Below are positions 26,281 through 43,770 of a stretch of DNA of 64,000 bases, one piece after another. Numbering within the stretch: the stretch's first letter is position 1; each line of letters starts with the position of its first letter. The stretch comes from Spirochaetota bacterium (lineage in GTDB: Bacteria > Spirochaetota > UBA4802 > UBA5550), in NCBI GenBank assembly GCA_963663865.1, contig OY760686.1:1152001-1216000 (forward strand), written 5' to 3'. The notes under the pieces were generated by a model, which was not told the origin of the DNA, searched no databases, and worked only from the letters and a program-made list of their open reading frames with translations. Made by a program: the position numbers and the translations under genes.

Positions 26281-29200
26281 ATGAATATTATTCAAGCCCT
26301 TTCAAGCCCTTTCAAGCCCTTTCAAGCCCTTTCTGATTATTCTTATGTTATCATTTTTCATTATCTGTGCAGATAATATTTACGCGAACCACGCGGTCAA
26401 TCCCGACGGGTCTTTCGCCTATAGCATTCCAATTGAGGTCCCGCCCGGAACGAATGGAATAGCCCCTTCGCTTTCTCTTACATATAACTCAAACGCCGGC
26501 AACGGAATCTGCGGTGTCGGGTGGCAGCTTTCCGGACTGCCGTACATTACGCGCGACAGTACCTATCCTGTAAACTATGACGGGTTTGACCATTACACAG
26601 GGCCTGCCGGACGGCTGGTAAATATCGGCGGCAGCGTCTATCATTACGAGGATGAGAACTTCTGCAGGGTGGAGGCACATGGTTCTTATGGCGACGGCCC
26701 TGAGTACTGGGTAGAGACAAAGCCTGACGGGACGAAGTATTATTACGGATATAACAGCGGGGAATGCGACTTCGGTTCCAGCTATCGTTCAAAGATATCA
26801 ATGGTAAAAGGCAACGGATCTATAACTTCTAATACAAGGGTCTGGGCCCTGTCAAAGGTTCAGGATATTAACGGAAATTATTACAGCATCAAATATACCC
26901 AGTCAAATGGCCAGTTTTACCCTGAGGAAATTATTTATACCGGAAATGTCGTAACAGATTACGATGTCCGCCGGTCAGTTGAGTTCGATTACGAATCAAG
27001 GACAGACGATATTGCTGATTATTCATCCTCATCAAGAGTCGAGACATATAACAGATTGAAAAGCATAACGGTAAAGCTTGACGGAGATGAGGTCAGGAAA
27101 TACACTCTTTATTACTCAAGCACTTCATCCTATGGAGGGCTTAGAAGCCGTATTGCCAATGTTGCCGACAGCGGTCTGCCTGCGGGAGAAAATTTTTACA
27201 GCTTCAGCTGGACAAACTCGCCTGTATCTTACAACTCTTATTATGGAAATCTGAACTACGATACTGAGAATATTGGTAATTCCTATTTTGGCGATTATGA
27301 TGGTGACGGCAAGCTCGATTACATGATAAAAAACGGCGCCTCCCTGAAGGTTTTCAAATTTAACGGATCAGGCTGGGTTGATATCGGACAGTACTCGGGT
27401 GTCGGTTATGTTTATAATATGATGGTGGATGTGAACGGCGATAATAGATCAGATCAGATAATGCCAACTATGGATTTCTCTCAGGCAGATTACAATTTTC
27501 ATTTCTATCATACAATCAGGTATGCCGGTTCCGGGACACTGGAGAATGTCACTTTCGGCAATGACGCTTATACGGCAAGTGCTGTTACGGTTGATGCCAG
27601 AGTGCGCTACGTTGATGTCAACGGGGACGGGAAATGTGATATAGTGTATAGAGACGCGAATAATAACCACAAATTCCTGTATCGGACTGAACCCGGTCAG
27701 GGGAATTATCCTCAATCCGGGGGGAACTGGAGGCTGGGGACAAGCGTGCAATTCCCGAGCGGGAGCACGGATTCCGGATCTGATTATCCCTGTTTCACAT
27801 ACACTGACGCTACAGGTGATGGGAAAGCTGATATTGTATTTATAAAATACGATCCAGTATCGGGGACAGTTAAAGCAAGGGTTTGTGTAAACAAGGGCTC
27901 AGGATGGCAAGAGAGCTTTACAGCTTATTCATTTCCATCGAGTTATTCTACGATATCTGACAGATATACTGTTACAGACATGAACGGAGATGGACTGACG
28001 GATATTGTTTACAGAAATGATAACAATCAGCATTATATTTATTCAAGCACAGGGACTTCATTCAGGCAGAGCGCGTACACGGATATTTTGGGAACTGAAT
28101 CGGATTCAGCTTATTATAACTACTATGATATGAATGGCGACGGTTGGACGGACATTGTTGCCATGAATTCCTCTGGGAATTTTACAATAGCTCTGGCAAA
28201 GTCTGTCATAGGCAAAAACTGGACCACTGTAAGCAAATCTCTGGGGAACGGAGATAAGGAAAGGTACCGGTTTGGAGATTTCAACGGAGACGGCCGGGTT
28301 GATATTTTATATATCAACAAATCATCAGATCAATTAGTGCTCGGGACTTCATTTTGTAAGGCAATAGAGAAGATTTCTACAGCGACTCCGCCGAATCAGA
28401 CATTAACGAGTGTTGTTTATGAGCTTCCGACAACCATGACAGATAATATTGATGATTGGGTTGCTGACAGTGCTTTATATTTGTCGGGAGGGAGCGGTAA
28501 ATTTATGCCGGATAATACCCCGAGGAGCCTGATATAAGCGTGTGTTATGAGCCGGATTATAGAAAAATAAGTTCAACAGTTTACTCATATCACAACGGAC
28601 TGATAAAGAAGGGATTGCCATATGAGAGGAAGAGTGTCGGATTTGAAAGAGTTGCGTCCAGAATGGGGGATGGAACCTATGCAAGGAATGATTATATTCA
28701 GACAGGGCTTTCGTTTCCCGGAAGAATGGCATACCATTATGAGTTTAGCTCCGAAAGACAGACAATTAGTCGAAAGTATTATACGTATCTGGAGGAGACG
28801 CCGTATTCCGGAGTGAAGTGGATTAAGACGGATTCTGAACTCAGTCATGACTATGAATCAGGAGTAGCTGTTTCAAATATTCTGAGAGAATATGGCTACG
28901 ACGAAGGCGATAGTGGTTGTTATGGTAACGTAACTTCAATAGCGATGAGTGTCAACGGTAATGATGGACTATATACGGAGATATCTTACAGTCCGAATCA
29001 ATCGGACTGGATAATTAACCGGGTAATATCGGTAAAGAAATGGGAGAACAGCAGCTGCGCCAATCTTATTTCATGGTCGAGCTTTGGTTACGATAATTAC
29101 GGATGGGGAGGAAATATCAAGACGAAGGCAGATTACCTGAAGGAAGGTACGAGCTGGAGGGCTATTGAAAGAAATTTTGGATATGATGATTACGGAAATA

Positions 29201-32200
29201 TAACATCGCTTTCTTTCCCAAATGGGACAGGAGGAAATTCCAGCGTCATAACGAACACATATGACGAGGACTATCATACCTTTCCTGTTGAAGAAATATC
29301 ATCTAATGACAGCGGCACAGAGCTCAAAACAATTACTACCTATGATTATGCTACTGGAAATAAAACATCAGTTACGGATGCCAATGGCAATACTACTGTT
29401 TATGAATATGACGATTATGGAAGAATTGTTGCTGAGAAGGCCCCTGGCGATGACTGGACAAAACAGTATTTATACTCCAAAGAATACTTCCCGGCGCCTT
29501 ACAGCGTTGTTGAGAGCCGCTTTAAAGACGATTCGTCTCTCGGTTATTCGTGGAAGCGTGAATACTATGACGGGCTTAAGCGCGTTGTAAAGACCGAGTC
29601 GAAGGGGTACAATGGACATGCGCTTGTTCAGGAGTTTAGCTATAATCTGCTCGGAAGGCTTGAGTCAAAGACAAACCAGTACCTGAGCGGATGCGATACT
29701 CCTCAGAAAACGGAATATGAATATGACAGCGCCGGAAGGCCGCAGAAGGCGGAAGCTCCGGATTCAACGGTCAAGAGAACGGAGTACAGCTACGCGGGAA
29801 ACCTCAAGGTGCTCAGGGAGATAGATGCTGACGGCAATGCCAGTTTGAGCAAGTATGACGCGCAGGGGAGGCTCAGGTACCAGGTTGATCCGTCGGGCGG
29901 AACGATAACATATAACTACGATGCCCTCGGCAGGCTGATATCGACTGTTGACGCGGGCGGGAATGTAACCTCAATTGCCTACGATACTCTCGGAAGGAAG
30001 ACGTCGATTACTGATCCGAACACGGGGACTACCTCGTTTACCTACTATGACAGCGGCGACGTAAAAACCCAGACGAACGCGCGAGGTGTAACGCTTACCT
30101 ATACCTACGACTCGCTTAACAGGATAACATCTGAGAGCTCTTCAGACGGGACTGTCAGGGCCGAGTATGTCTATGACAGCGGGACTACGAACAACCTCAA
30201 GGGCAGGCTTTACGGTGTAGATGACAATTCGGGGAGCACGGTGTTTTCATACGACGCGAGGGGTAATGTCACTCACACCCTGCGTTCAATAGACTCAGAC
30301 GGAGACGGGGTAGAGGACCGCGAATTCGCGGCATCATTTGCTTACGATTCGCAGAAGAGGCTTGTTGAAACGGCCTATCCTGACGCGAATCATCTTGTTG
30401 TGAAGAGGGTATACGGTGAGGCCGGGAACCTCCACGCGGTGACAGACGAGTCGGGCAACGCCTTTGTGCAGTACAGAAGGTCTGGGTCGACAGCGACTGC
30501 CATGAACGGCCATTCCATAAGCAGGATGACCGGAAACGGTGTTGAGACAGTAGTTGATTTTAATCCCGCCAACATGAGGCCCGTCACTCTTGAGACAAAG
30601 AGAGGGAATGATGTTCTTGAGCAGATGAACTATACGTTCAGGCCAGGGGGCAATATTCTTTCAATAACCGACGGATGTACCTCTGACGGAGATGACAGTG
30701 AGAGCTTTGTATATGATAACCTGGGCAGGCTTGTACAGGCATCGTCTGCTTCAAGCATGTATGGAACAAGAATTTATACATATGGTGCTCAGGGAAATAT
30801 TGAAACGGTTCAGTATACAAGCAATACGGGCCTTGTTTATTCATATGGCAACAGCAGTCATCCTCATGCAGTAAGTTCAATAATGTCGGCTCCGTATAAT
30901 ATGCCATATGGCTCATACAGCTATGACTCAACCGGCAACATGACTTACAGAAACGGCAAGACGCTTGTCTACGACGCGAAGAACCGTCTCATAGAGGTGA
31001 GAAGCGGCGCTAATCTGGTTGAAAGCTACGTCTACGACTTTACCGGAGCGAGGATAATCAAGAAGCTCGCTGACGGTTCGGCGGTGTTCTCCATAAACGG
31101 GATGCATGATCTGAAGACAACGCCCGGTTTCCCCGATCAGTACGTGAACTACATAACGGGGGCCGAGGGCGATCTTGCCGCGCAGATTGAGGGAGTCAAC
31201 ACGGCAGCCGGCGCGAGCGTCTACCCTGTTGTGAAGAACATGTACAACTGGAAGAGCCCGGCGGGCCTGATGCTAACGATAAACGCGTACGCGAGCGCCT
31301 GGCTGAACAATCCGGCGAACTACAGAAGGCTGGGTTACGCGCTCTTCGGTCTGCTTTTGGCGGCGTGTTCATTTGTGCTGTTCTACAGTGTGAGAAGGTA
31401 TAAAGCAGCAAGGAGCGCTAACGCGTGTTCCATGCTGCCATGGTCCTGGCTGAGGCACAGCGTACCTGGAATACTGCTTTTCTTCGTGTTCACATCATTC
31501 GGGCTTACCGGCTGCTTCGACGGGTCAGTAGACAACACGACCTTGAGCAACGTCAAGTACATGCACCCGAACCATGTCGGTTCAGTTGCAATGGTAACCG
31601 ACCACGAAGGAACGGTGGTGGCGCGCTACAAGTACGAGCCTTACGGGAAGGTACTGGCGCAGTCAACAGGCACCGGAATTTCAGACTACAAGTACACATC
31701 ACAAAAGTCGGACGCTACAGGCCTGTACTACTACAACGCGAGGTACTACGACCCTGACATCGGCAGGTTCATAACAGCTGATACCGAGATACCTGATGTA
31801 AAGAACTCTCAGGCCTTTAACAGGTACATGTACGTTGTTGGAAATCCGGTGAATTATGCTGATCCCAGCGGACACTGGGGATTCGGCTGGCTGAAGGATT
31901 TAGCTGGTAGTGCGTGGAGTTATACACAAAGTGGTCTTAAAACAGCCTATAAGTATACTATCGGTTGGATGTATGATAATGTAATAAAACCTACGGGGCA
32001 CTGGTTTAAAGATGTCGGATCTGAAATTGGAAGTACTTTTCAAAACTGGCAAGACGTTGTAGGATGTGTTGCTACGGCATTTTTTATTGCTTTGTCGATA
32101 TATATTGTTTGTACGACACCAGTCGGGTTTATGTTAATTGTATGTACAGTGATAGGTGCCATCGTTGGGGGTACACATGGAAATTTATTCAGTGCATCTG

Positions 32201-32571
32201 CGTGGAAAAATTGGGACTGGGCAGGAGCAGGTATAGGAGCAGCCGAGGGTTTTGCTGTAGGGGTAGTTGGACAAATGATTCCCGATTATGGTAGCATTCC
32301 CTTTCTTACAAAATATACTGGAATTAGTGCACTTCAAGCTGCATTTTACATGATGGTTGGTAATGGTATATATAATTATGCCAAAACCAATCAAGTCTGG
32401 CTTGAGTGGGATACCAACACTGATAATTTGTCAAATAAGTCTTCGAATAAACTAAGTAATATTAAAATAGAAAATGGTATTGATGAAAATGTTGACTATA
32501 ACAGCCTCTCTGATCTAAAAAAATCTTTGAGCTTGGTTCATTTTATTAACGCTTTTTATTCCGAGAGGTGA
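26281..32571 (+). pseudogene. Large SpvB/FG-GAP/TcdB-mid/YD-RHS protein (TcB-TcC fusion-like, about 2090 aa), doubly frameshifted as assembled
   Basis: SpvB-like IEVPPG..PSLSLTYNS..GVGW, several DxNGDGxxD repeats, YD repeats and RHS core LYYYNARYYDP..GRF..NPVNYADPSG. ORFs 26345-28537 and 28540-32571 abut in different frames, and the 5' repeat shifts the start. Confidence 0.85.
26291..26333 (+). repeat. Simple sequence repeat (TTCAAGCCCT)x4 plus TTC in the signal-peptide coding region
   Basis: Four exact 10-bp units begin 10 nt after the start of ATG 26281. Confidence 0.97.
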
Positions 32572-33200
32572 GTTATATGATAAGAGAACCAGGTAGAATT
32601 TTATGGATATTTTTAGTTATTTTCTGCAGCTGTGGAGTGAGTCTTAATTCATCGGCAAAGAAGGATGAAGTTATTAATTATCAACGTGAAATGAATTTTC
32701 ATACTATTCGTGTTTATATAGATGCCAGAATTATATCAGAATCAGGTTATGAATTTCATGAAAAAAGCAAAATATGGAATCCAATTATTCCAATAATGAA
32801 AAAATCTCTTAAAAGATTGTATGGAGAAAATGTTGATATCGTAATAACTAATATTACTGAGAAAGAGGCAAAAGTTGAGAAAGATGAAATTGAAATTGAT
32901 ATAAAGATAAAACTAATAAAACCGTCTGGTTTTATTATGCCGTGTATATCGGGAATTACTTTAGGAATTATTCCATTTTCTCAAAAAAATCGTATTCAAA
33001 TGCAAACAGTTATTTCTAATAATATTAACAAAAAGACTAAAAAATATATTCTCGAGGATGAATATAAATTTTGGGTCAGCTCAATATTTATTATTGTATA
33101 TCCGTTTGTACAAACTGATTTAGATTTATTATATCAGGTGCTGGATGACCAAAATAAAACTGTTTTCAAGAACGCTACATATGACCAATTATTCAAATAA
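32568..33200 (+). CDS. Putative lipoprotein, candidate immunity protein 1
   Basis: Overlaps the RHS stop (GTGA), lipobox-like FCSC, AT-rich, internal ITLGIIP segment. Confidence 0.65.
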   Translation: MSYMIREPGRILWIFLVIFCSCGVSLNSSAKKDEVINYQREMNFHTIRVYIDARIISESGYEFHEKSKIWNPIIPIMKKSLKRLYGENVDIVITNITEKEAKVEKDEIEIDIKIKLIKPSGFIMPCISGITLGIIPFSQKNRIQMQTVISNNINKKTKKYILEDEYKFWVSSIFIIVYPFVQTDLDLLYQVLDDQNKTVFKNATYDQLFK

Positions 33201-33242: not shown

Positions 33243-33680
33243 TTGGTTAGCGCTTTGTTAGCGTCAGGGATAGGTATTGCAGGAGCAATATTAGTTCTTT
33301 TAATAGCTTCTGTCGTAATTGGTGCTGCTGTTGGAGCTGTAACTGGAGCAATAACAGGTGCAATTTTAGCATATGTGTCTCATGAAGCCTTTGGAACGGA
33401 TACAGAGTGGGGCGATTATGCGAAAAGAGGAGCAATTTCTGGAGCTATTGCAGGCGGCTTTGGTGGTTTATCTGGCGGGGCTAATGGTGCTTTCTCTGCC
33501 TCATTAAAGAATTGAGTTAAAACCGCTGGTGAAACAATTTCTGAAACAGCTCCAAATTTAAAAATTGGTGGGGAAACTTTTAAAGGGATTGTTGTAGAAG
33601 TTAATTTCCCTCCTCCCTCATGGTATGCTACAGATCAATCAAAAATTCTTTTTTCATCAATATGGGGTTCTGAATGGTAA
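33243..33680 (+). pseudogene. Decayed orphan RHS C-terminal cassette (Gly-zipper) with internal TGA
   Basis: GxxxG-rich ORF. The frame stays open past TGA 33513-33515 to TAA 33678-33680, which overlaps the next ATG. Confidence 0.6.
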
Positions 33681-34204
33681 AAAAAATCAAGAACTGTATG
33701 AGTATTTTTTTTATAAGCTATTTATCTTGCAGTAATTTAAGTAAAAATGTAGATTGTAATAATATTGAACAATCGCTTGAAGATTATAGAATAGTGAATT
33801 GTATGGAATATAAAAAGATCTACAAAAAAAAGTTTCATCAAGTGGAACTAATAAAAAATGATGAATTATTGAATTATGAAATTATTGGTGAATTTGAAAT
33901 AGTCAAATTCATCGATCTAAACAACTATAGAGTATCAACATCGTATACTTTGATTACAGGTATACCCATTTCTCCCATGGAAATTATCAACTTTGGTGAA
34001 GATGTCAAAAGAATCGTAAGTGAATCTCATAAAAAAGCGATTGCAGAAGCAGAAAAGAAATATGTGAATGCAATTTCATATTACGGCACAAAAACTAATA
34101 ACAGCAAAGGATATAAAAAAAACACCATTCTTCTTGATATTCAACCTGATTGTCCCAATTATTTAGTTTCGAAGTATTACATGTTAAATAAGTCTCGAAA
34201 GTGA
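33674..34204 (+). CDS. Putative lipoprotein, candidate immunity protein 2
   Basis: Basic N-terminus, lipobox-like YLSC, AT-rich, coupled to the upstream cassette. Confidence 0.6.
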   Translation: MVKKIKNCMSIFFISYLSCSNLSKNVDCNNIEQSLEDYRIVNCMEYKKIYKKKFHQVELIKNDELLNYEIIGEFEIVKFIDLNNYRVSTSYTLITGIPISPMEIINFGEDVKRIVSESHKKAIAEAEKKYVNAISYYGTKTNNSKGYKKNTILLDIQPDCPNYLVSKYYMLNKSRK

Positions 34205-34262
34205 AGTTGAAACTGAAAATAGTAGTTAATTTCCGATTATAACAGATAACGAAGGTGATATA

Positions 34263-35192
34263 GCGCGCTACAAGTACGAGCCGTACGGGAAAGTACTGGT
34301 TCAGTCAACAGGCACCGGAATTTCAGACTACAAGTACACATCACAAAAGTCGGACGCTACAGGCCTCTACTACTACAACGCGAGGTACTATGACCCGGAA
34401 ATCGGCAGGTTCATAACGGCTGATACCGAGATACCTGATGTTAAGAACACTCAAGCTTTCAATAGGTACATGTACGTTGTCGGAAATCCGGTGAATTATG
34501 CTGATCCGAGTGGACACTGGGGATTCGGCTGGCTGAAAAATATAGCCAGTAGTGCGTGGAATGGGATTAAAACAGCAGGGAAAGTGATGTATGATTATGT
34601 AATAAAGCCTGTGTATGATGAAGTCTTAACACCTGTGGGGCATTTCTTCCGGGCTGGCTGGAATGGTGCAATGGACACGGTTTTTTCTGGGGACTGGTGG
34701 AAGGATATATGGAATAATAACAAGTGGTTGAGGACTACAGTATGCATTACTGTTATAATAGTTTTAATTATTATTGGAATTGCTTTGATACCTGGAGGTT
34801 CACCAGTGTGGTATTATCCTTTGGTATGTACATTGATTGGAACGATAGTTGGTGGTACCAAGGGTAATGTCGTAATGCATCCTTTTTCAAAAGATACCTG
34901 GTCAAATTGGAGCTGGGAAGGAGCGGCACTGGGTGCCATTATTGGGTTTGTTATTGGTTATGCTATCGCTTATTCTTCTGAATTAGTTGCAAAAGAAGCT
35001 GCAAAAAAATTATCTGAAAAGGTTGCTGCGGAGGAAGTATTTGCTAGTGGTTCCAAGATATGGGGAGAGGGTGCTATTAGCGGTAAGGGTGTTGTGGCGG
35101 GAAATACGCTTGGAAATTATGTCACTGAAGGATTTATTTTAGAATTATCTCTATCTTCTATTGCTATTGGTATAGGGATGCTTTTTAATTAG
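34263..35192 (+). pseudogene. Orphan RHS core fragment plus alternative C-terminal domain
   Basis: Near-identical to the main gene from 31621 through DPSGHWGFGWLK, then diverges. No clear start for the core. Confidence 0.85.
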
Positions 35193-35301
35193 TATTAAAA
35201 TTATATGTATAGGAATAAATAGAATTGTGTCACGAAATATTATGCTTTATTATAATAACTTATTGTAAGTGGTAAAGAAATTCAATTTGGATTAAACAAT
35301 A

Positions 35302-36306
35302 ATGAAAATAAAAAATGTAGCTTTCATATTAATGGTTGAAATTTGTTTTTCGTGCAATGGAGGTAAGCAATTAGAATTATATACGCAAAATAATATTAAA
35401 AACAGTAGAATTGGTTTTAGAAATTCATGCAACAATCTTTCTGACGAAGAAATAAAGCTGAGTGATTCAGTATTAAACCATATTTATTATGAAATACAAA
35501 GTGATAATGAAATACTTATTAGCGGATTTATTCCATTGAATACTGAGGTTGTCATTCCGGTGACGTCGGGGAAAAAGAAAATTGAATATTTAATCACTTC
35601 GCATATGGGCCGTTTAGAAAAAGAATATTTAATTTCAACAGTACCAAGAACCGGGTATCATATTTCAGAAAAGTATAGATACAAGAAAATTGATCTTGAG
35701 CTAAATGATGGTGAATCTATAGTTTTTAATGCAGTTATAAAAAAACCGGTAGAATACCCTTCGCTTGCTGCACTTAATTCCTGCATAGAAAAGTTTTTTC
35801 ATATACGTTCCAGGCCGGAATTGTTTTATGAAGCAAGTTTTGTTGAAGCTAACCAATTGCATAATTCAATAACGGATATAAAAGAAGCAACTATTAGGTT
35901 TAAATTATCAGATAGTGTTGTATTTAAAAATTATGCTAAGAATTCAAGTTGTAATCATGAATATACAATTGCAACTTTAGCAATAATGCTATCCCCGAGA
36001 CACCTGCATTTATTTGAAGTGCCATTAAATTCGGAAATAAATTTTCATGCTGACCCAGGTAAGTATAAAATTGGTTATATGGTGTATGGTTTGTTTTGCA
36101 GAAATAGAGAGGATGACTTAGTTGAGATGTCAATATATGAAAGAGCGAATAAAGCAAAGTTTATTGAGGTAGATGCTGTAAAAGGCAAAACAATAAATTT
36201 AACTCTTGTGAGGGTTGGTAATATGAAAAAGACTGGGTTGTTTAATAACAAACTATTTCAGGAAATAGAATTTAAGGTTGATTCGGACAAACAATACAAA
36301 GAATAA
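35302..36306 (+). CDS. Putative lipoprotein, candidate immunity protein 3
   Basis: MKIKN + hydrophobic stretch + CFSC lipobox, AT-rich, follows the orphan C-terminal domain. Confidence 0.65.
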   Translation: MKIKNVAFILMVEICFSCNGGKQLELYTQNNIKNSRIGFRNSCNNLSDEEIKLSDSVLNHIYYEIQSDNEILISGFIPLNTEVVIPVTSGKKKIEYLITSHMGRLEKEYLISTVPRTGYHISEKYRYKKIDLELNDGESIVFNAVIKKPVEYPSLAALNSCIEKFFHIRSRPELFYEASFVEANQLHNSITDIKEATIRFKLSDSVVFKNYAKNSSCNHEYTIATLAIMLSPRHLHLFEVPLNSEINFHADPGKYKIGYMVYGLFCRNREDDLVEMSIYERANKAKFIEVDAVKGKTINLTLVRVGNMKKTGLFNNKLFQEIEFKVDSDKQYKE

Positions 36307-36363
36307 TTTTTCGTCGACTACATGAAGAATGTCTTAAGATAAATTGCTATTCATGGCACAAAA

Positions 36364-36790
36364 GGCGACCTTGCCGCGCAGATTGAGGGAGTTAACACAG
36401 CAGCCGGCGCGAGCGTCTACCCTGTTGTGAAGAACATGTACAACTGGAAGAGCCCGGCGGGACTGATGCTAACGATAAACGCGTACGCGAGCGCCTGGCT
36501 GAACAATCCGGCGAACTACAGAAGGCTGGGTTACGCGCTCTTCGGTCTGCTTTTGGCGGCGTGTTCATTTGTGCTGTTCTACAGCGTGAGAAGGTATAAA
36601 GCAGCAAGGAGCAATAACGCGTGTTCCATGCTGCCATGGCCCTGGCTGCGACATAGCATACCTGGAATACTGCTTTTCTTCGTGTTCACATCATTCGGGC
36701 TCACCGGCTGCTTTGATGGGTCGGTAGACAACACGACAAGAAGCAATGTGAAGTACATGCACCCGAACCATGTCGGTTCAGTCGCAATGG
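36364..36790 (+). repeat. Partial duplicate of RHS gene segment 31168-31594 (TM hairpin/lipobox region)
   Basis: Colinear 427-bp copy with mostly synonymous differences, ending at GSVAM. Confidence 0.92.
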
Positions 36791-36799
36791 AGACTGCAT

Positions 36800-37200
36800 G
36801 GCTTTTTCACACTGGGAGTGTGAGACCTTTTTCTTCGTCACTTTCGTCCGGGTTTTTTGCCGCAGGCTTTAACTCGCTCAGCTGTGCAACTTGCTTTTCT
36901 CTTGTCTGAGACAGGGAGCCTGTGGACCATTTTCACGCTGAGTGCGTGGCACCTCGTTGCTTTGCAACGGTATCGACCGTTTACCGAAAATATATTTTGT
37001 GCGGTGCGCACGGGCATTTCTTTCGCCACTTTTTTGTTGCGCCACAAAAAAGTGGCGAAAAAAAGGCGTTCCTCAATCGCCGGAAGGGCTGGCTTTTGTA
37101 GTTAGCAAACTATTTCAGCGCCGTTATCATCATCCTGATGAAACGGCACCCGTGCGATTTACATCCGTGTAAATCGCACGAGTTGAGTTGTTGAATCACG
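36800..37200. repeat. Multi-hairpin mosaic repeat, copy C
   Basis: Same modules as copies A, B and D, with compensatory stem changes. Confidence 0.85.
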
Positions 37201-37373
37201 ATGCTTGCAGTCTCATAATTCTACAATTGTGTTTGCCTACGTTTATTTCGACCTCCTGGCGGCCGTAGGCACTGTGACATCGTGTCAGGCGCGCCGCCTC
37301 ATCGCAGTTGTAATCCCCACGAAAAATCATTGAAGTTATAAGTAGAGTTTCTAATAATAACAACGGGGTCACG

Positions 37374-38240
37374 GACTACAAGTACACCTCGCAAAAGGCC
37401 GACGCTACAGGCCTGTACTACTACAACGCGAGGTACTATGACCCTGAAATAGGCAGGTTCATAACGGCTGATACTGAGATACCTGATGTAAAGAACACTC
37501 AAGCCTTTAACAGGTACATGTACGTTGTTGGCAATCCGGTGAATTATGCTGATCCGAGTGGGCACTGGGGATTCGGCTGGCTGAAAAATATAGCCAGTAG
37601 TGCGTGGAATGGGATTAAAACAGCAGGGAAAGTGATGTATGATTATGTAATAAAGCCTGTGTATGATGGTGCAGTAGGTTTCTTAAGAGACATTAGAGAC
37701 CTTGGCTCAGGAGTAGGCGGTTTCTTTAAAGATATGGGTAGGGATATAGGCGATTTTTTTGCGGATCTATGGGATAAACAGTGGTTTCGGGTTACAGTAT
37801 ATTTTGCTATAATTGTCGCTGCTATTATTGTCGGCATTTACTTGGCTCCAATGCTTTATGCTGCTATTGGGATAACTGTCACACAAGGAACGATGTTAGG
37901 TTATATTGGAACTGGAATGGTTCTTGGGGCTTTAATCGGAGGGACGAAGGGGAAAATTGTAAAATTTGTGATTGAATTGGCAAAGGGGAAAGTGAGATCT
38001 CTTGATGATATTGGAGATTTTTTCAAAGAAAACTGGGATTGGGAAAATGCTCTTCTTGGAGCGGCAATCGGGTCTGTCTCTGGATTATTTGGCCCACTAT
38101 TTAAAAAATATGTATGGGATTTATCAGTAAATTTTGGCGATGCTCTGTTGGAAAGTGTAAAATATCGAGAAGGTGATGCGTTATTAGGTCAAGGAGGTGA
38201 AGTGTTTTTAGGGGTAGAAATGAGTATCCCATGCTTTTAA
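37374..38240 (+). pseudogene. Orphan RHS core fragment plus alternative C-terminal domain
   Basis: Homology to the main gene from 31684. Near-identical to the 34263 cassette up to PVYD, then diverges. Confidence 0.85.
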
Positions 38241-38398
38241 CAATATGGAGGTTGAAATGAATAAAAAGTATTGTTTGATTATGGTTTTTATGGTTTTTGT
38301 TAGTTGTAGTTCAACACATCTAAAAGGTATTACTGCTAATAGTAATGTTTATGATTGGGCAATTAGAGGAATAGAGGTAAGCGTCAAATCTCCCCCAG

Positions 38399-40003
38399 TC
38401 ATCTGATTTTAATCATTTCCTGAGAAACCGTATCAGGCAGGAGATTTCTGAGTTCTACCTTGTTTGTACATTTTGGCAATCTTTCAAAAATATACCGCAA
38501 ATAGTAGTAAGGTTCCAGCTTGTTGGCCTTTGCACTCTCTATCAGAGAATAAAAACAGGCACTGCTTCGAGCTCCCCGGGGAGTATTCGAGAACAGCCAA
38601 TTCTTACGCCCGACGACAAATGGACGTATGGCATTTTCAACCAGATTGTTGTCCGGTGTTAACAGGTGGTGATCAAGAAAATGAATGATATTTCCCCACA
38701 TAGAAAGTGTATATGACAGGGCTTTTCCGCTTAGACTTGAAGGGAGAACAATTATTTGTTGTTCTATAAGCCAGTTATGAAACTTCTCAAGTATGGGCTT
38801 CATTTGTTCTCTGCGTTTGACAATAAAATCATCGTTCTCAAGATTTCTACTTCGCAGAGTACTTTCTACACTGTAAATGTCGCGGATATATTTCAGAGCC
38901 GTGTGTGCACACTTTGATTTCCGGTTAGCCTTGTATGCCTTTTCAAAGCCCCTTCTTGCATGAACAAGACAACCGACATGGGTAATTGTTCCTTCATATG
39001 AGGAGTCATTAAAGTCATATCCCTTATATCCGTCAGTTTGAACAAACCCGGAATAATTCTGTAGTATTCTTTTCGGAACTTCTGATGAGCGAGTCGGATG
39101 ATACTGATACAGTAAAAGAGGATGCTCTTTATCTCCATATCCATACGCCACCCACATGTATGATTTTGATGAAGGTGATTTATTTTCCTCTCTCAAAACC
39201 TGCACTGTTGTTTCGTCCATACGAATAACCGGTCCTGAAAGAATAACCTCTTCCAGGACTTCCATGAGCCCCCTGCATTTTTCTGCCACAAGAAGTGACC
39301 AGTTGCATTGTGTTGCTCGGGAGATATCAACTCCGAATCTGGAGAAGATTTTAGCTTGTCTGTAAAAAGGTAGAGCATCGCAGAATTTTGATATAACAGA
39401 ATATGCGATAAGCCCCGGTGATGCAATACTCCCAGGGACAAGTCGTTCTGGTGCTTTTGCTGTCTTTATTTCCGTAATTTCTTGTTCCAGAAAATCATCG
39501 CAGGCGCATGGGCCATATTTTTTTCTGATGTGTTTATTAACAATTATCTGCTGCGGAATAATATCAAGTTCTTCTGTTATATCTTCTCCAATGCAAGGAC
39601 GCTCTTTCCCACAGCAAGGACATAATTTTTCTTCATTATCCAGATCGTGAATGATCTCTTTACGAGGAATTTCATCTGAAAGTTTCTTTCTGCCAGGTTT
39701 TTTCCGTGTATGAGAAGGGATCGTTATATCGTCATTTTCTGGTTCTTTCGGTGAATTTTCATCAGCACCATCTTCAGCTTCGTTAAACAAAAGCAGTTGA
39801 TCTATTTCTTCTTTTGTCAGTTTTTCACTTCTCTTTCCGAAAACCATTCGCCTGAAATCTGAAAGCTGAAGCCGTAAAGAATCAATTTCTGTTTCAAGAT
39901 TATTACGTTTCTCTTCGAGCTGTAAACATTTAGAATCTAATGCCAGCAACATCTCTTTTAGTAATGCTGGATTGTCTGGAAGGTTGTTCGGATCAATACT
40001 CAT
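38399..40003 (-). CDS. tnpC: IS66 DDE transposase
   Basis: FGKRSEK, CPCCG zinc finger, MDETT, QTDGY, CLVHARR and DNNLVENAIRP. Confidence 0.95.
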   Translation of the reverse strand: MSIDPNNLPDNPALLKEMLLALDSKCLQLEEKRNNLETEIDSLRLQLSDFRRMVFGKRSEKLTKEEIDQLLLFNEAEDGADENSPKEPENDDITIPSHTRKKPGRKKLSDEIPRKEIIHDLDNEEKLCPCCGKERPCIGEDITEELDIIPQQIIVNKHIRKKYGPCACDDFLEQEITEIKTAKAPERLVPGSIASPGLIAYSVISKFCDALPFYRQAKIFSRFGVDISRATQCNWSLLVAEKCRGLMEVLEEVILSGPVIRMDETTVQVLREENKSPSSKSYMWVAYGYGDKEHPLLLYQYHPTRSSEVPKRILQNYSGFVQTDGYKGYDFNDSSYEGTITHVGCLVHARRGFEKAYKANRKSKCAHTALKYIRDIYSVESTLRSRNLENDDFIVKRREQMKPILEKFHNWLIEQQIIVLPSSLSGKALSYTLSMWGNIIHFLDHHLLTPDNNLVENAIRPFVVGRKNWLFSNTPRGARSSACFYSLIESAKANKLEPYYYLRYIFERLPKCTNKVELRNLLPDTVSQEMIKIR

Positions 40004-40044
40004 GCAGACATTGTATGTGGACGTTAATATATTAATAGTACTTT

Positions 40045-40392
40045 TTATGAAGCATGGAAAAAATTAAGAGGTCTGTGTGCATTGAAAAAGTCAATGCCTG
40101 ACAACAGCATTGTTAGCTGCTGCTGACTTATCTCCTGTACTTCCTCCTCTGTTTGCGGCCACGGAAATCTATGTTTCTCCATCCGTTTTTGCCAGAGACA
40201 AAATCCGTTGCTATCCCAATACAACACTTTTAACAAACGATGATTCCTGCTGCAGAACATGTACAGGTGACCATTGAATGGATCCAGATGCATCTCTTCC
40301 TCTGCGATAATTACAAGTCCGTTTATCTGCTTGCGCATGTCTGTAATGCCGGGCTTGATAAATATACGAACACTGTTCCAGTCTATCTGCAT
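40045..40392 (-). CDS. tnpB: IS66 accessory protein TnpB
   Basis: TDMRKQINGL, LKVLYWDSNGFCLWQKR and FPWP. Confidence 0.93.
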   Translation of the reverse strand: MQIDWNSVRIFIKPGITDMRKQINGLVIIAEEEMHLDPFNGHLYMFCSRNHRLLKVLYWDSNGFCLWQKRMEKHRFPWPQTEEEVQEISQQQLTMLLSGIDFFNAHRPLNFFHAS

Positions 40393-40706
40393 GGGATAAC
40401 TCCGAAAGATTTGACAATACATATAAGCATCTCCGGTGATATGTCCGCTGGAAAAGAGATGTGAATTATATTGCTAAAATGGATTTCAATCCTGTTTGCT
40501 GATGCTGTTTTTTGCAGTACAGGTTTGAATTTTATTTCTGTCATGGCTGATGATTTTTGTTCACTTTCGAGTCGGCGCTTCCATTGATTAAATGACCAGT
40601 ATGATATACCTGAGTCGAGGCAGAATTTCCGTTGTGACGCTCCAGAGGCATAGAACTCTTTTAGTTGTTCCTGCCAGTATTGCTTGCGTTTTTCTCTTGA
40701 TTCCAT
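40383..40706 (-). CDS. tnpA: IS66 accessory protein TnpA
   Basis: W...SGASQRKFC...W helix-turn-helix pattern; first gene of the IS. Confidence 0.85.
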   Translation of the reverse strand: MESREKRKQYWQEQLKEFYASGASQRKFCLDSGISYWSFNQWKRRLESEQKSSAMTEIKFKPVLQKTASANRIEIHFSNIIHISFPADISPEMLICIVKSFGVIPCR

Positions 40707-41300
40707 GTTTCCCCCATATCAAATGATGGAAATCTATCACAATTCAGAATTTATGAGAAGATGCTGTCAATTTGACGCTTACGAATAGAGAATGCTGACA
40801 GTTATAGATTTGTTATTCATGGTGCTTTATATCCTATGAATGACCTTGGCACTATTGGTCAATTTGGGGAAAAAGCAATTGAAGGAGTGTTTTTTATTTC
40901 AAGCAAACAAATTCTATTTTCAGTTTATAATCCTAACTTAATGACATATTATACAGTAGATCAAATTAAATTTGATGATATTACATCATTATCATCGAAA
41001 AAACATGGGATTACACGGCTTATTACTATTAAAACAAAAAAAAATTATGTTTATAGCATTATGGTTGTATTATGTTTGAACAATGAAGGAGTAGAAGTTG
41101 ATAAAGATAAAGTCGTCGAATTTATACTTGGGCAAAAAAATCCGAGATTATAAAATAAATATATCACTATTATATTATATCAACTCTATTCATGCTAATT
41201 ATTAAAAAAAGTAAAAGTGTTTATGTTTTTATTGAATATAATTGAAGAAATGTTATCTGATATGATATTCTATGCATGTTGTTTAATAACAATATACTAT

Positions 41301-41427
41301 GAATACTGCTCTTCTTCGTGTTCACATCATTCGGACTCACCGGCTGCTTCGACGGGTCGGTAGATAATACAACCTTGAACAATGTTAAGTACATGCACCC
41401 GAACCATGTCGGTTCAGTTGCAATGGT
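41301..41427 (+). repeat. Second partial duplicate of the RHS lipobox segment (31469-31595)
   Basis: 127-bp colinear copy ending at GSVAMV. Confidence 0.9.
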
Positions 41428-41437
41428 GAGTGTAGTC

Positions 41438-41818
41438 TTTTTTCACGCTGAGAGTGTGGCACTTCTTTTGCCGCTTTTTGACCGGCCAAAAAGCGGCGGG
41501 AAAAAGCTGTTCCTCAGGCGCCGGAAAGGCTTGGCTTTTGCAGTTACTCGACCATTGCAGCGCCGTTATCATCATCCTGATGAAACGGCGCCCGGGCGAT
41601 TTGCATCCATGCAAATCGCACTGGATGAATTGTTGAAGCAGGGTGCCTGCAGTTTCTTAATTCCGCCATTATGTTCCTGCACCCTGTAGAGCCGCCCAAT
41701 TTGGGCGGCTCTACCTCACCGTGACACGCAGCGCCCCGCGGATGACAAGATGAGGAGGGAAGCCGAAGGCAGGAACATTGGCGGCAGATGCAGGGTCACC
41801 CAAATTGGGCGACCCTAC
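41438..41818. repeat. Multi-hairpin mosaic repeat, copy D, with two GTAG-type REPs
   Basis: The 5' part matches copy B and the 3' part matches copy A. REPs at 41686-41714 and 41790-41818. Confidence 0.88.
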
Positions 41819-43770
41819 ATCATCGTCTTCTCAAAGAGCTCTTCGTCTTCGGGGCGACCTATGACGGCGATGTAATCGTTTTCAAGTATTACGTAATCAG
41901 GCTCAGGGTTGGGAAGCAGCTTTCCGTCTCTGAGAATGCCTACTACCGATATCCCGGTCTTCCTGCGTATCTCCGATTCCCTGATGGACTTCCCGGCCAG
42001 GGGGCTGAGCGCTTTCACTTCTTTCCAGTGCATCTCGAGAAAGAAGGGCGTCTTCTTGATCACGGAAAGCACAGAGCTGTCAAGTTTCTCAGTCAGTATG
42101 TTCGTGTAAGTCTGCTGTCTTATCGCGTCAGTGAGGCTGTATATCTCAGTCAATGGAAGGTCAAAGGCAGTCAGCGTCTTCCGCACAATCTCAAGGCTTG
42201 CTTCAAACTCGGGCTGTACTACTTCGAAGATGTTCATTCTGAAGAGCTCGTTTACGCTTGAAAGCGCGTCCGTTCTGGCGATTATCTTGATGCCGGGATT
42301 ATGCCTTGACGCGATGCCGATAATGTCCCGTGCCGTTGATAGAAACGGTATTGTAACAATCAGCAGTCTGGCCCTGTTTATCTGCGCCGCGTGCATGACC
42401 GTCTCCTGGCCGCTGTCTCCGTAGATGACTGGATATCCTGCGGACTTGGACATCTCGAATCTGCGGAAGTCCTGTTCAATAATGATAAAGGGATAGCCCA
42501 GCTCTCTGAAGATAGAAGCGATCTGGCGTCCGACCCTTCCGCCGCCGGCAACAACAATGTGTCCGGTCAGTCCCGCTGAGGAAACATTAATTGTCTGAAA
42601 CTCTTCATGTTTGAAGTACTTCTTCTTGAGTGAGTAGAGCGGCGATGTCAGCATCGACAAAAACGGAGAGATAATCATGGTGATAATCGAAACGGAAAGG
42701 ACCAGCGAATAGAAGTCCGCCCCGATAATCTCGTGCTTTAATCCGGTCCGTGCCAGCACGAATGAGAATTCTCCGACCTGAGCGAGCCCAAAGCCGAGCG
42801 CCAGGGGAATAATATTGAAGTACTTAAAAACCACGCTGAGCGAAGAAAAGATGACAACCTTGCTTATTACGATTACGGCGACAAGCGCGAAGACGAGGCC
42901 GGTATTTTCGGCGATGAATGCCGGATTTACGAGCATACCTATTGAAGTAAAAAACACCAGTCCGAAAATATCTCTCAGGGGGATGATGTCGTTAAGGGCC
43001 TGGTGGCTGTAATCGGACTCGCTGATTACCATTCCGGCGATAAATGCCCCGAAAGCCAGTGAAAGCCCGAACATGTGAGTCAGGTACCCTACGCCGAGAC
43101 CTATGGCCGTAATCGTGACGAGAAAAAGCTCACGGGAGTAGAGCTTTACGACAAGCTTCAGGAGCCAGGGTATTATCCTCATTCCCACAAAGATGATTGC
43201 GACAAGAATGAGCAGTGCTTTCAGAAGGATGAGCAGAAGCGGGACGATATTGCTTTCAAGCGACTGAATATTGGGGATGATGAGCATAAGCGGAATTGCG
43301 GCGAGGTCCTGTACAATCAGTACCCCGATCATTACCCTGCTTGACAGCGTTCCGATGAGCCCCCGGCTCATAAGGGTTTTCAGAACTACCATCGTGCTTG
43401 AGAGTGATATTACCATTCCAAGTACGATGGATTCGGAGAAGGGCAGCCCCAGGAACCTGCCGATTCCGTAACCCGCTCCAATGAGCAAAATCACCTGAAT
43501 CGGCGTGCCGATGAGGGCTATGCCTTTGACGGACTTCAGCTCCTTGAATGAGAAGTCGAGCCCGATTGAGAAGAGAAGAAGCGCGACGCCTATCTCCGCT
43601 AAAAGCTCTATCTGGGGAATCTGTGAAATGGTTACTCCGCCCGTGTGCGGGCCCATTATCACCCCGGCGAGGATGTAGCCGACAATCGGCGGAATCTTGA
43701 GCCTGTTTGCCGCAAGGCCCGCCGCCAGTCCTACCAGTATAATAATGATGAGATCTTCTGCTATTCCCAT
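41815..43770 (-). CDS. CPA2/Kef-family cation:proton antiporter with TrkA-N and TrkA-C domains
   Basis: LAEIGVALLLFSIGL, SLSST, IVQD, FFTSIG, GGGRVG and a C-terminal RCK-C. Confidence 0.92.
   Translation of the reverse strand: MGIAEDLIIIILVGLAAGLAANRLKIPPIVGYILAGVIMGPHTGGVTISQIPQIELLAEIGVALLLFSIGLDFSFKELKSVKGIALIGTPIQVILLIGAGYGIGRFLGLPFSESIVLGMVISLSSTMVVLKTLMSRGLIGTLSSRVMIGVLIVQDLAAIPLMLIIPNIQSLESNIVPLLLILLKALLILVAIIFVGMRIIPWLLKLVVKLYSRELFLVTITAIGLGVGYLTHMFGLSLAFGAFIAGMVISESDYSHQALNDIIPLRDIFGLVFFTSIGMLVNPAFIAENTGLVFALVAVIVISKVVIFSSLSVVFKYFNIIPLALGFGLAQVGEFSFVLARTGLKHEIIGADFYSLVLSVSIITMIISPFLSMLTSPLYSLKKKYFKHEEFQTINVSSAGLTGHIVVAGGGRVGRQIASIFRELGYPFIIIEQDFRRFEMSKSAGYPVIYGDSGQETVMHAAQINRARLLIVTIPFLSTARDIIGIASRHNPGIKIIARTDALSSVNELFRMNIFEVVQPEFEASLEIVRKTLTAFDLPLTEIYSLTDAIRQQTYTNILTEKLDSSVLSVIKKTPFFLEMHWKEVKALSPLAGKSIRESEIRRKTGISVVGILRDGKLLPNPEPDYVILENDYIAVIGRPEDEELFEKTMM

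Follow-up and report, generated by a model that had tools for sequence, protein, structure and literature searches.

In a 64,000-nucleotide stretch of a Spirochaetota bacterium genome (assembly GCA_963663865.1, contig OY760686.1, positions 1,152,001 to 1,216,000 of the forward strand; hereafter the window), an open reading frame (ORF) for an RHS-repeat toxin carries an insert placed between its last YD repeat and the RHS core. The insert consists of two predicted transmembrane (TM) segments, TM1 and TM2, joined by a basic loop, and ends in a lipobox-like cysteine immediately upstream of the core, which forms the plug of the RHS shell. This combination of a hairpin and a cysteine before the plug suggests that RHS toxins can be anchored and processed in a manner not yet described. 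On balance, we favour the reading that an internal stop-transfer segment followed by a lipoprotein-type signal probably tethers a periplasmic cocoon to the membrane and lipidates its plug through Lgt and LspA.

The insert and its invariant cysteine

The ORF and the parts of the insert, all on the + strand, are as follows.

28540..32571, +: ORF of 1343 aa with RHS/YD shell, insert, RHS core and C-terminal toxin (translation, Pfam, TIGRFAM and AlphaFold2 (AF2) model)
31219..31329, +: start of the insert, a helical stretch of aa 894-930 ending N-P-x-N-Y-R-R (alignment; AF2 helices 907-923 and 925-960)
31330..31392, +: TM1, LGYALFGLLLAACSFVLFYSV, aa 931-951, a putative stop-transfer helix running from periplasm to cytoplasm (hydrophobicity; uncharged stretch of 21 aa)
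31393..31461, +: basic loop RRYKAARS...WLRHS, aa 952-974, with five K+R and no D+E, putatively cytoplasmic
31462..31512, +: TM2, VPGILLFFVFTSFGLTG, aa 975-991, a signal-peptide-like h-region ending L-T-G (hydrophobicity; alignment)
31513..31515, +: Cys 992, invariant in the alignment, putative site of lipidation by Lgt and cleavage by LspA
31516..31557, +: acidic linker of 14 residues from the Cys to the core (sequence; AF2 pLDDT 29 at 991-1000)
31558..31881, +: RHS repeat-associated core, the plug with its aspartyl protease, up to the D-P-S-G-H-W-G motif (TIGR03696)

Translation of the ORF confirmed the arrangement given in a preliminary description of this DNA, in which TM1, the basic loop and TM2 ending FGLTG-C are followed by the core start YMHPNHVGSV, which begins at aa 1007. 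Both segments are hydrophobic enough on the Kyte-Doolittle scale to form membrane helices, as that description had supposed, and the best 19-residue mean is 2.06. The window TM2 has the layout of a signal peptide, with R..R-H-S followed by 17 hydrophobic residues and then L-T-G-C. Its cysteine is internal and not N-terminal, lying at aa 992 of the ORF and at about aa 1,800 of an intact paralogue described below. A P-x-x-W motif is found in the basic loop, ahead of TM2, and the same motif stands at the TM2 start in most of the related proteins that carry the insert (carriers). Two other features of the segment were set aside: the L-A-A-C inside TM1 is not conserved in the alignment of 17 carriers and was ruled out as a lipobox, and initiation at a Met upstream of TM2 (Met 971 of the window ORF) was rejected as a general explanation because this Met is not conserved among the relatives.

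A word-indexed protein search with aa 860-1120 gave 112 proteins, so that 113 were examined with the window ORF. Within the 150 aa before the core, no hydrophobic window was found in 86 of the 113, whereas 27 had one or two, and the last hydrophobic segment ended in Cys in 25 of these 27 insert-bearing proteins. Since 27/113 proteins carry the insert and 25/27 of them end it in Cys, the association of the hydrophobic insert with the cysteine is above chance. In P0029 and in P0031, the latter named as Verrucomicrobia, TM1, a strongly basic loop and TM2 are retained and the Cys is replaced; TM2 ends V-E-A-A or V-Q-A-Q, which resembles a type I signal-peptidase site at the same position.

When 17 carriers sharing 23-51% identity were aligned, the Cys was the sole invariant column before the core, and no second conserved Cys was present in the insert. 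A profile of this alignment was run over 1.84 billion representatives and matched 115,140 proteins at E<=1e-3, essentially all of them RHS cores, and 177 at E<=1e-30. Among the best 150 matches 139 were new, and 109 of these had at least 120 aa before the core (50%-identity representatives). Two or more hydrophobic segments were present in 95 of the 109, and a Cys closed the last segment in 94 of the 95; the remaining representatives had one segment (seven) or none (seven). Six sub-threshold rows carry the same terminal Cys by eye. The cysteine is thus conserved across homologues, as the preliminary description required of a functional site: it is invariant in the alignment of 17 and present in 94/95 of the wider set.

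The residues around the cysteine are also biased (n = 94). Position -3 is mostly F (36) or L (25), position -2 is T (32), S (17) or A (13), and position -1 is G (38), A (22) or S (11), that is, small in 71/94; G (27) or S (25) is common at position +1. With a PROSITE-like lipobox pattern, a match was found at the pre-core position in 80/220 proteins compared with 52/1843 other cysteines. The three divergent carriers in the window genome end TM2 in L-T-G-C, L-T-A-C and F-N-G-C. In the Leptospira-like group, G-x-P-P-W is found 10-20 residues after the Cys.

Distribution and origin of the insert

To place the carriers among other RHS proteins, a tree of 167 rows (80 carriers and 87 non-carriers) was built with FastTree on an alignment from which a 60% fill filter had removed the insert columns. 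The insert trait needs five changes on this tree compared with a mean of ∼56 when the trait is shuffled (0/500 shuffles were as low), and at least two of the 'non-carriers' inside the clade, P0207 and P0225, are misclassified. The insert therefore appears to have had essentially a single origin, in one clade, and since it did, the conservation counts given above do not represent independent events.

Profile matches (E<=1e-30) were found in 64 of 401 sampled genomes of the window's phylum. One spirochaete family accounts for many of them, with matches in 53/75 of its genomes, compared with 7/39 in the window's own family, and several copies per genome are common among the matching members of the phylum. 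The names attached to carriers are those of Spirochaetota and Leptospirales metagenome-assembled genomes (MAGs), Leptospira sarikeiensis, Leptospira sp., a Chrysiogenales MAG and a Polyangiaceae MAG.

Export signals and predicted membrane topology

The preliminary description had assumed that the shell is exported by Sec. Among proteins with an SpvB motif near the N-terminus, an N-terminal signal peptide is present in 21 of 22 carriers and in 7 of 8 non-carriers, and the sole carrier without one is a truncated gene call of a window-like copy; for the complete proteins, the assumption therefore stands.

Charge and length statistics were collected for 109 carriers. In TM1, a median of 21 consecutive residues are uncharged, and the Cys lies a median of 18 residues beyond the last charge, as in an h-region. 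The loop (median 15 aa) contains on average 4.28 K+R compared with 1.12 D+E and is net positive in 99/109 carriers, whereas the 15 aa after the Cys contain 0.79 K+R compared with 2.04 D+E and are net negative in 70 and net positive in 24. The linker between the Cys and the core varies from 10 to 113 aa (median 39) and is of low complexity, rich in G/S/T/P/D/E, in the relatives. Taken together, the Sec signal, the basic loop and the lipobox at the TM2 exit agree and point to an out-in-out path of the predicted hairpin. Such a path also suits the protein as a whole, as placing the shell and the plug on the same side of the membrane requires an even number of helices, and the hairpin has two.

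Both enzymes of the putative processing are encoded in the genome: a Peptidase_A8 match (118.8 bits) corresponds to LspA, and two LGT matches (148.3 and 131.1 bits) to Lgt. The absence of a type VI secretion system (T6SS) and of TcA had been noted for the window. For the T6SS this extends to the whole genome, in which VipB/TssC, the sheath, gave no match while the E. coli control was matched; for TcA it is weaker, as TcA_TcB_BD and VRP1 gave no match in this 98%-complete genome and control genomes were equally silent. No conserved accessory gene is evident, from the ORF lists only, beside the three carrier loci of the genome.

Lipoprotein signals were also seen elsewhere among these proteins. 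In two short ORFs, P0218 and P0212, an ordinary N-terminal lipoprotein signal leads directly into this kind of linker, core and toxin, and each may be either an orphan cassette or a lipoprotein plug-toxin gene that stands on its own. A fourth RHS protein of the window genome (C1:247619, - strand, a 2491-aa open frame) has an N-terminal lipobox, I-L-F-S-C, and no pre-core insert, so that this genome has a lipobox at either end of RHS proteins.

A disrupted fusion gene and its intact paralogue

The preliminary description had treated the 1343-aa ORF as a self-contained RHS protein. By comparison with its upstream neighbour and with an intact paralogue, it is instead the downstream piece, comprising the TcB C-part and a TcC-like part, of a frameshifted SpvB/propeller/RHS fusion. 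The relevant features are the following.

26291..26333, +: decanucleotide tandem repeat TTCAAGCCCT, 4.3 copies, between an upstream ATG (MNIIQ...) and the signal-peptide h-region
26345..28537, +: upstream ORF of 730 aa, TcB-like N part (SpvB, FG-GAP/VCBS propeller, TcdB_toxin_midN)
28525..28531, +: junction of a 73-nt deletion between 7-bp direct repeats GAGCCTG (comparison with the intact paralogue)

Pfam matches SpvB (E 8.3e-14), FG-GAP_3 (E 1.6e-23) and TcdB_toxin_midN (32.4 bits, cut-off 24.8) in the upstream ORF, and because this ORF holds these three domains, the two ORFs (26345-28537 and 28540-32571) jointly correspond to a TcB/TcC-type fusion. The 1343-aa ORF itself contains RHS_repeat (E 7.2e-41) and, at aa 1032-1112, the RHS-associated core TIGR03696 (73.5 bits), and it aligns with TccC3 over the core. 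The core aspartates D1081 and D1108 are nearly invariant in a 32-sequence alignment, and D-P-S-G-H-W-G (aa 1108-1114) occupies the usual cut position of the aspartyl protease. No PAAR or VgrG domain was found by Pfam in the window RHS fusion.

The intact paralogue (2137 aa, genome position 771521) has the SpvB, propeller and RHS parts fused in one chain and carries the same TM1-loop-TM2-Cys module. Identity between the window copy and this paralogue is 99% in the first 2.7 kb, drops to 95% in the 3.4 kb that follow, and ends directly after the D-P-S-G-H-W-G cut motif. In the window copy, the 73-nt deletion shifts the frame to a stop at 28535-28537 and splits the fusion into a TcB-like and a TcC-like ORF. 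The deletion is not an assembly error, because the deleted form is spanned by contigs of two sequencing runs that come from different studies; a third run contains both the deleted and the undeleted forms, and the broken allele thus persists in more than one sample. The decanucleotide repeat has six copies in the paralogue, where the ATG is in frame, and four in the window, where it is out of frame, and the start codon of the upstream ORF falls within the signal-peptide h-region. Contigs of all four sequencing runs examined break at the tract (26291-26333), which is a candidate slipped-strand phase switch for RHS genes.

With a frameshifting deletion and an out-of-frame start, the window copy is probably inactive, and the module therefore has to be judged on the intact paralogue and the relatives. 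For the window copy itself, the claim of Sec export does not hold: its Sec signal is cut off, and the export model therefore applies to the intact paralogue and the relatives only.

An AF2 model of aa 1-1125 of the 1343-aa ORF, built on a 32-row alignment, has a mean pLDDT of 82.5. It superimposes on YenC2 (4igl_B; Z 35.6, 538 residues aligned, rmsd 2.7) and on TcdB2-TccC3 (6h6g; Z 35.4, 943 aligned, rmsd 2.8), followed by T6SS Rhs effectors (Z 23-32), SGS1 (8fjp_A; Z 30.4) and teneurin (6fay; Z 30.7). The insert (aa 888-1001) was modelled as helices 907-923, 925-960 and 969-988, and the residues after Cys 992 are unstructured. Each of the 24 matching solved Tc, Rhs, teneurin and SGS sequences begins to align only immediately past the Cys, in agreement with the earlier statement that Tc BC and T6SS Rhs shells are soluble in this region.

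A model for tethering and lipidation, and its alternatives

In the scheme that we propose, the N-terminal signal peptide would send the SpvB domain, the propeller and the YD shell across the cytoplasmic membrane. TM1 would then halt the transfer, leaving the basic loop in the cytoplasm, and TM2 would set export going again for the core and toxin. The hairpin would therefore have its two ends in the periplasm, where the cocoon could close while being tethered to the outer face of the inner membrane. The invariant Cys would most likely be modified with diacylglyceryl by Lgt, and LspA would probably cut the chain before it, leaving the shell attached through the hairpin and, as a separate fragment on a lipid anchor, the linker, the plug and possibly the toxin. 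As to the path of the toxin to its target, a further step can be imagined: once LspA had separated the shell, anchored by the hairpin, from a triacylated piece with the linker, the core and possibly the toxin, the plug would be a lipoprotein, and the Lol machinery or the spirochaetal surface-lipoprotein route would pull it out or move it together with its cargo. We regard this extension as tentative, with odds clearly against it.

Several points weigh against our reading. The window copy is broken, by both the 73-nt deletion and the out-of-frame start, and structure prediction, which reproduces the shell fold well, models the insert at low confidence (block-mean pLDDT 29-75). Residues flanking TM1 on its N-terminal side are mildly basic as well (K+R 2.19 compared with D+E 1.03), and the charge argument therefore rests on a difference, so that the contrast is weakened but not reversed. 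Conservation of the Cys partly reflects shared ancestry, as the carriers are one clade. The resemblance to a lipobox, proposed in the preliminary description, holds for x-x-[GAS]-C with an invariant Cys, but the strict E. coli-type pattern [LVI][ASTVI][GAS]C is present in 25/94 only, and position -1 is non-canonical in 23/94, with N (8), Q (7), T (4), D (2) and Y (1) among them. Hydrophobic toxin segments tend to stop in SecYEG, which is awkward for an encapsulation that follows Sec export. We know of no precedent for a lipoprotein signal located ∼1,750 residues into a protein, and lipidation and cleavage are proposed from the comparison of sequences.

Some of these points would be accommodated if the hairpin were a membrane anchor only, neither lipidated nor cut, with the Cys kept for helix capping, a disulfide or metal binding. 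The evidence on topology does not require lipidation, the non-canonical -1 residues fit such a role, and an internal lipobox is without precedent in the literature searched. However, no column of the insert other than that of the Cys is invariant, the Cys has no second conserved Cys to pair with, and it always lies at the TM2 exit, after small residues and before a G/S-rich, acidic and variable linker, as in lipoproteins. Moreover, short ORFs bear the same Cys after an ordinary N-terminal signal, and P0029 and P0031 swap it for an A-x-A site, which points to processing by a signal peptidase. We consider a pure anchor unlikely, at about one chance in several.

Less probable still, in our view, is that the hairpin rests within or alongside the cocoon until it enters the membrane of the target cell to aid the entry of the toxin, by analogy with prePAAR Rhs effectors and SGS1. 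RHS shells can shield predicted TM helices, as reported in the passages on SGS1 in PMC9935623, and the carriers are indeed enriched for membrane-active cargo: a TM-like window follows the cut motif in 100/134 carriers compared with 25/95 non-carriers (odds ratio 8.2, Fisher p 3e-13, in a test that ignores kinship). However, 21 of 22 carriers have N-terminal Sec signals, and segments so hydrophobic should therefore partition into the membrane of the producer during export. The hairpin is also located upstream of the aspartyl-protease cut and would therefore not travel with the freed toxin, and a role in the target membrane leaves the basic loop, the lipobox with its invariant Cys and the disordered linker of 10-113 aa unexplained. 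A chance hydrophobic stretch or a functionless by-product of pseudogene decay, to which the frameshift and out-of-frame start of the window copy and the unconserved L-A-A-C in TM1 might have pointed, is already contradicted by the retention of the module in the intact and two divergent paralogues, in more than 100 cluster representatives and in 64/401 genomes of the phylum, and is very improbable.

Cargo, immunity candidates and orphan cassettes

Downstream of the core, the window contains the following features.

31882..32571, +: polymorphic C-terminal toxin of ∼229 aa with hydrophobic, glycine-zipper-like helices (sequence)
32568..33200, +: candidate immunity protein, 210 aa, whose N-terminal signal has a lipobox-like end (weak LIC12231 lipoprotein match, E 4.8e-4)
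33674-34204 and 35302-36306: lipoprotein-like ORFs, candidate immunity genes, between cassettes
34227..35192, +: orphan core remnant and glycine-zipper toxin cassette
36349..36909, +: orphan fragment with the whole insert (TM1, loop, TM2, L-T-G-C) and the core start
37353..38240, +: orphan core remnant and glycine-zipper toxin cassette
38399-40706: IS66 element
41285..41689, +: orphan fragment beginning inside TM2 (FGLTGC...) and continuing into the core start

The window toxin has no Pfam family, and this is the rule, as the cargo of 65/70 carriers is without one. The named cargo among these 70 comprises Phage_lysozyme (one carrier), Tlde1 (two), Peptidase_M23 (one) and a weak DUF456; precomputed matches gave M23 in P0009 and a nuclease, Tox-REase-7, in P0013. 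The candidate immunity ORFs of the genome begin with signal or lipoprotein-like sequences. Because most of the cargo is hydrophobic or acts on the cell wall and the immunity candidates are signal- or lipoprotein-like, the carrier clade looks specialised for envelope-acting toxins.

The array of orphan core and toxin cassettes spans 33243-42261, and two of the cassettes encode glycine-zipper toxins. Orphan cassettes that begin in TM2 bear on annotation, as they and the short plug-toxin ORFs will be called small lipoproteins.

Relation to known RHS proteins and significance

The closest described architecture is the Tc BC cocoon (TcdB2-TccC3 of Photorhabdus, YenB-YenC2 of Yersinia entomophaga), which likewise combines SpvB, an FG-GAP propeller and a YD shell with a core in which two aspartates are conserved, and which has a D-P-x-G cut site ahead of a C-terminal cargo that varies. 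Classical Tc subunits are not known to have a Sec signal and exit via a lysis cassette. In contrast, the present proteins are single-chain fusions with an N-terminal Sec signal, they have a ∼100-aa pre-core insert with two TM segments and a lipobox to which the solved Tc sequences do not align, and their cargo is of a bacterial-envelope type, whereas that of Tc BC modifies actin. The T6SS Rhs effectors (RhsA, Tse5, RhsP, Tse15) share a closed YD cocoon, a core aspartyl protease and an encapsulated toxin, which in the Tse5 type is a membrane toxin with a glycine zipper. The prePAAR effectors carry their TM helices at the N-terminus, where a chaperone binds them in the cytoplasm; the present proteins are without PAAR or VgrG, and their TM helices are pre-core and combined with a Sec signal.

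Type II lipoprotein signals offer the nearest parallel for the end of the insert, since they too consist of a basic n-region, an h-region and x-x-[GAS]-C, followed by a G/S-rich flexible tether. The present signal differs in being internal, after ∼1,750 exported residues and a stop-transfer helix, and the cleaved 'signal peptide' would in this case stay attached to the shell. Teneurins and the mosquito protein SGS1 also have a YD shell in common with the present proteins, but the TM segment of teneurins is N-terminal and they have no pre-core lipobox. According to PMC9935623, SGS1 hides predicted TM helices in its shell, but these are a C-terminal cargo after the protease site, and SGS1 too has no pre-core lipobox. 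The myxobacterial SitA proteins, polymorphic lipoprotein toxins delivered by outer-membrane exchange as related in the consulted part of PMC5562445, would resemble the present proteins as lipoprotein toxins, and one present carrier comes from a Polyangiaceae MAG; in that account, however, the SitA lipobox is an ordinary N-terminal one and there is no RHS shell.

The layout of signal peptide, SpvB, propeller, RHS and toxin has been described before. The TcdB/TcaC polymorphic toxin class of Zhang et al. 2012 (PMC3482391), as outlined in its relevant passages, has a signal peptide, SpvB, an integrin-like propeller, RHS repeats and swappable toxin tips, is listed for spirochaetes and other groups, and matches the present proteins in this order. 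The relevant passages of its main text make no mention of a pre-core TM hairpin or an internal lipobox. Treponeme genome papers, in the parts consulted, only count RHS/YD genes, and the literature searched, most subscription journals being outside the search, contains no description of either element. Judging from these comparisons, the Sec-exported SpvB-propeller-RHS class is already known, and the pre-core hairpin with its predicted lipobox would be the new element.

The RHS and Tc cocoons described so far are soluble and depend on a dedicated injector (TcA, T6SS or a type VII secretion system), whereas the present clade, which extends to a myxobacterial MAG, relies on Sec for its export. 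If the Cys is lipidated, this would be the first internal lipoprotein signal known to us in a giant exported protein, it would add a processing step by host enzymes to RHS maturation, and the question of how bacteria without T6SS or TcA use RHS toxins would become testable, for which the association with membrane- and cell-wall-active cargo provides a concrete handle. Finally, if a lipoprotein-sorting route were to replace TcA and T6SS, it would constitute a new, secretion-system-independent mode of toxin delivery that is widespread in Leptospira-like spirochaetes.

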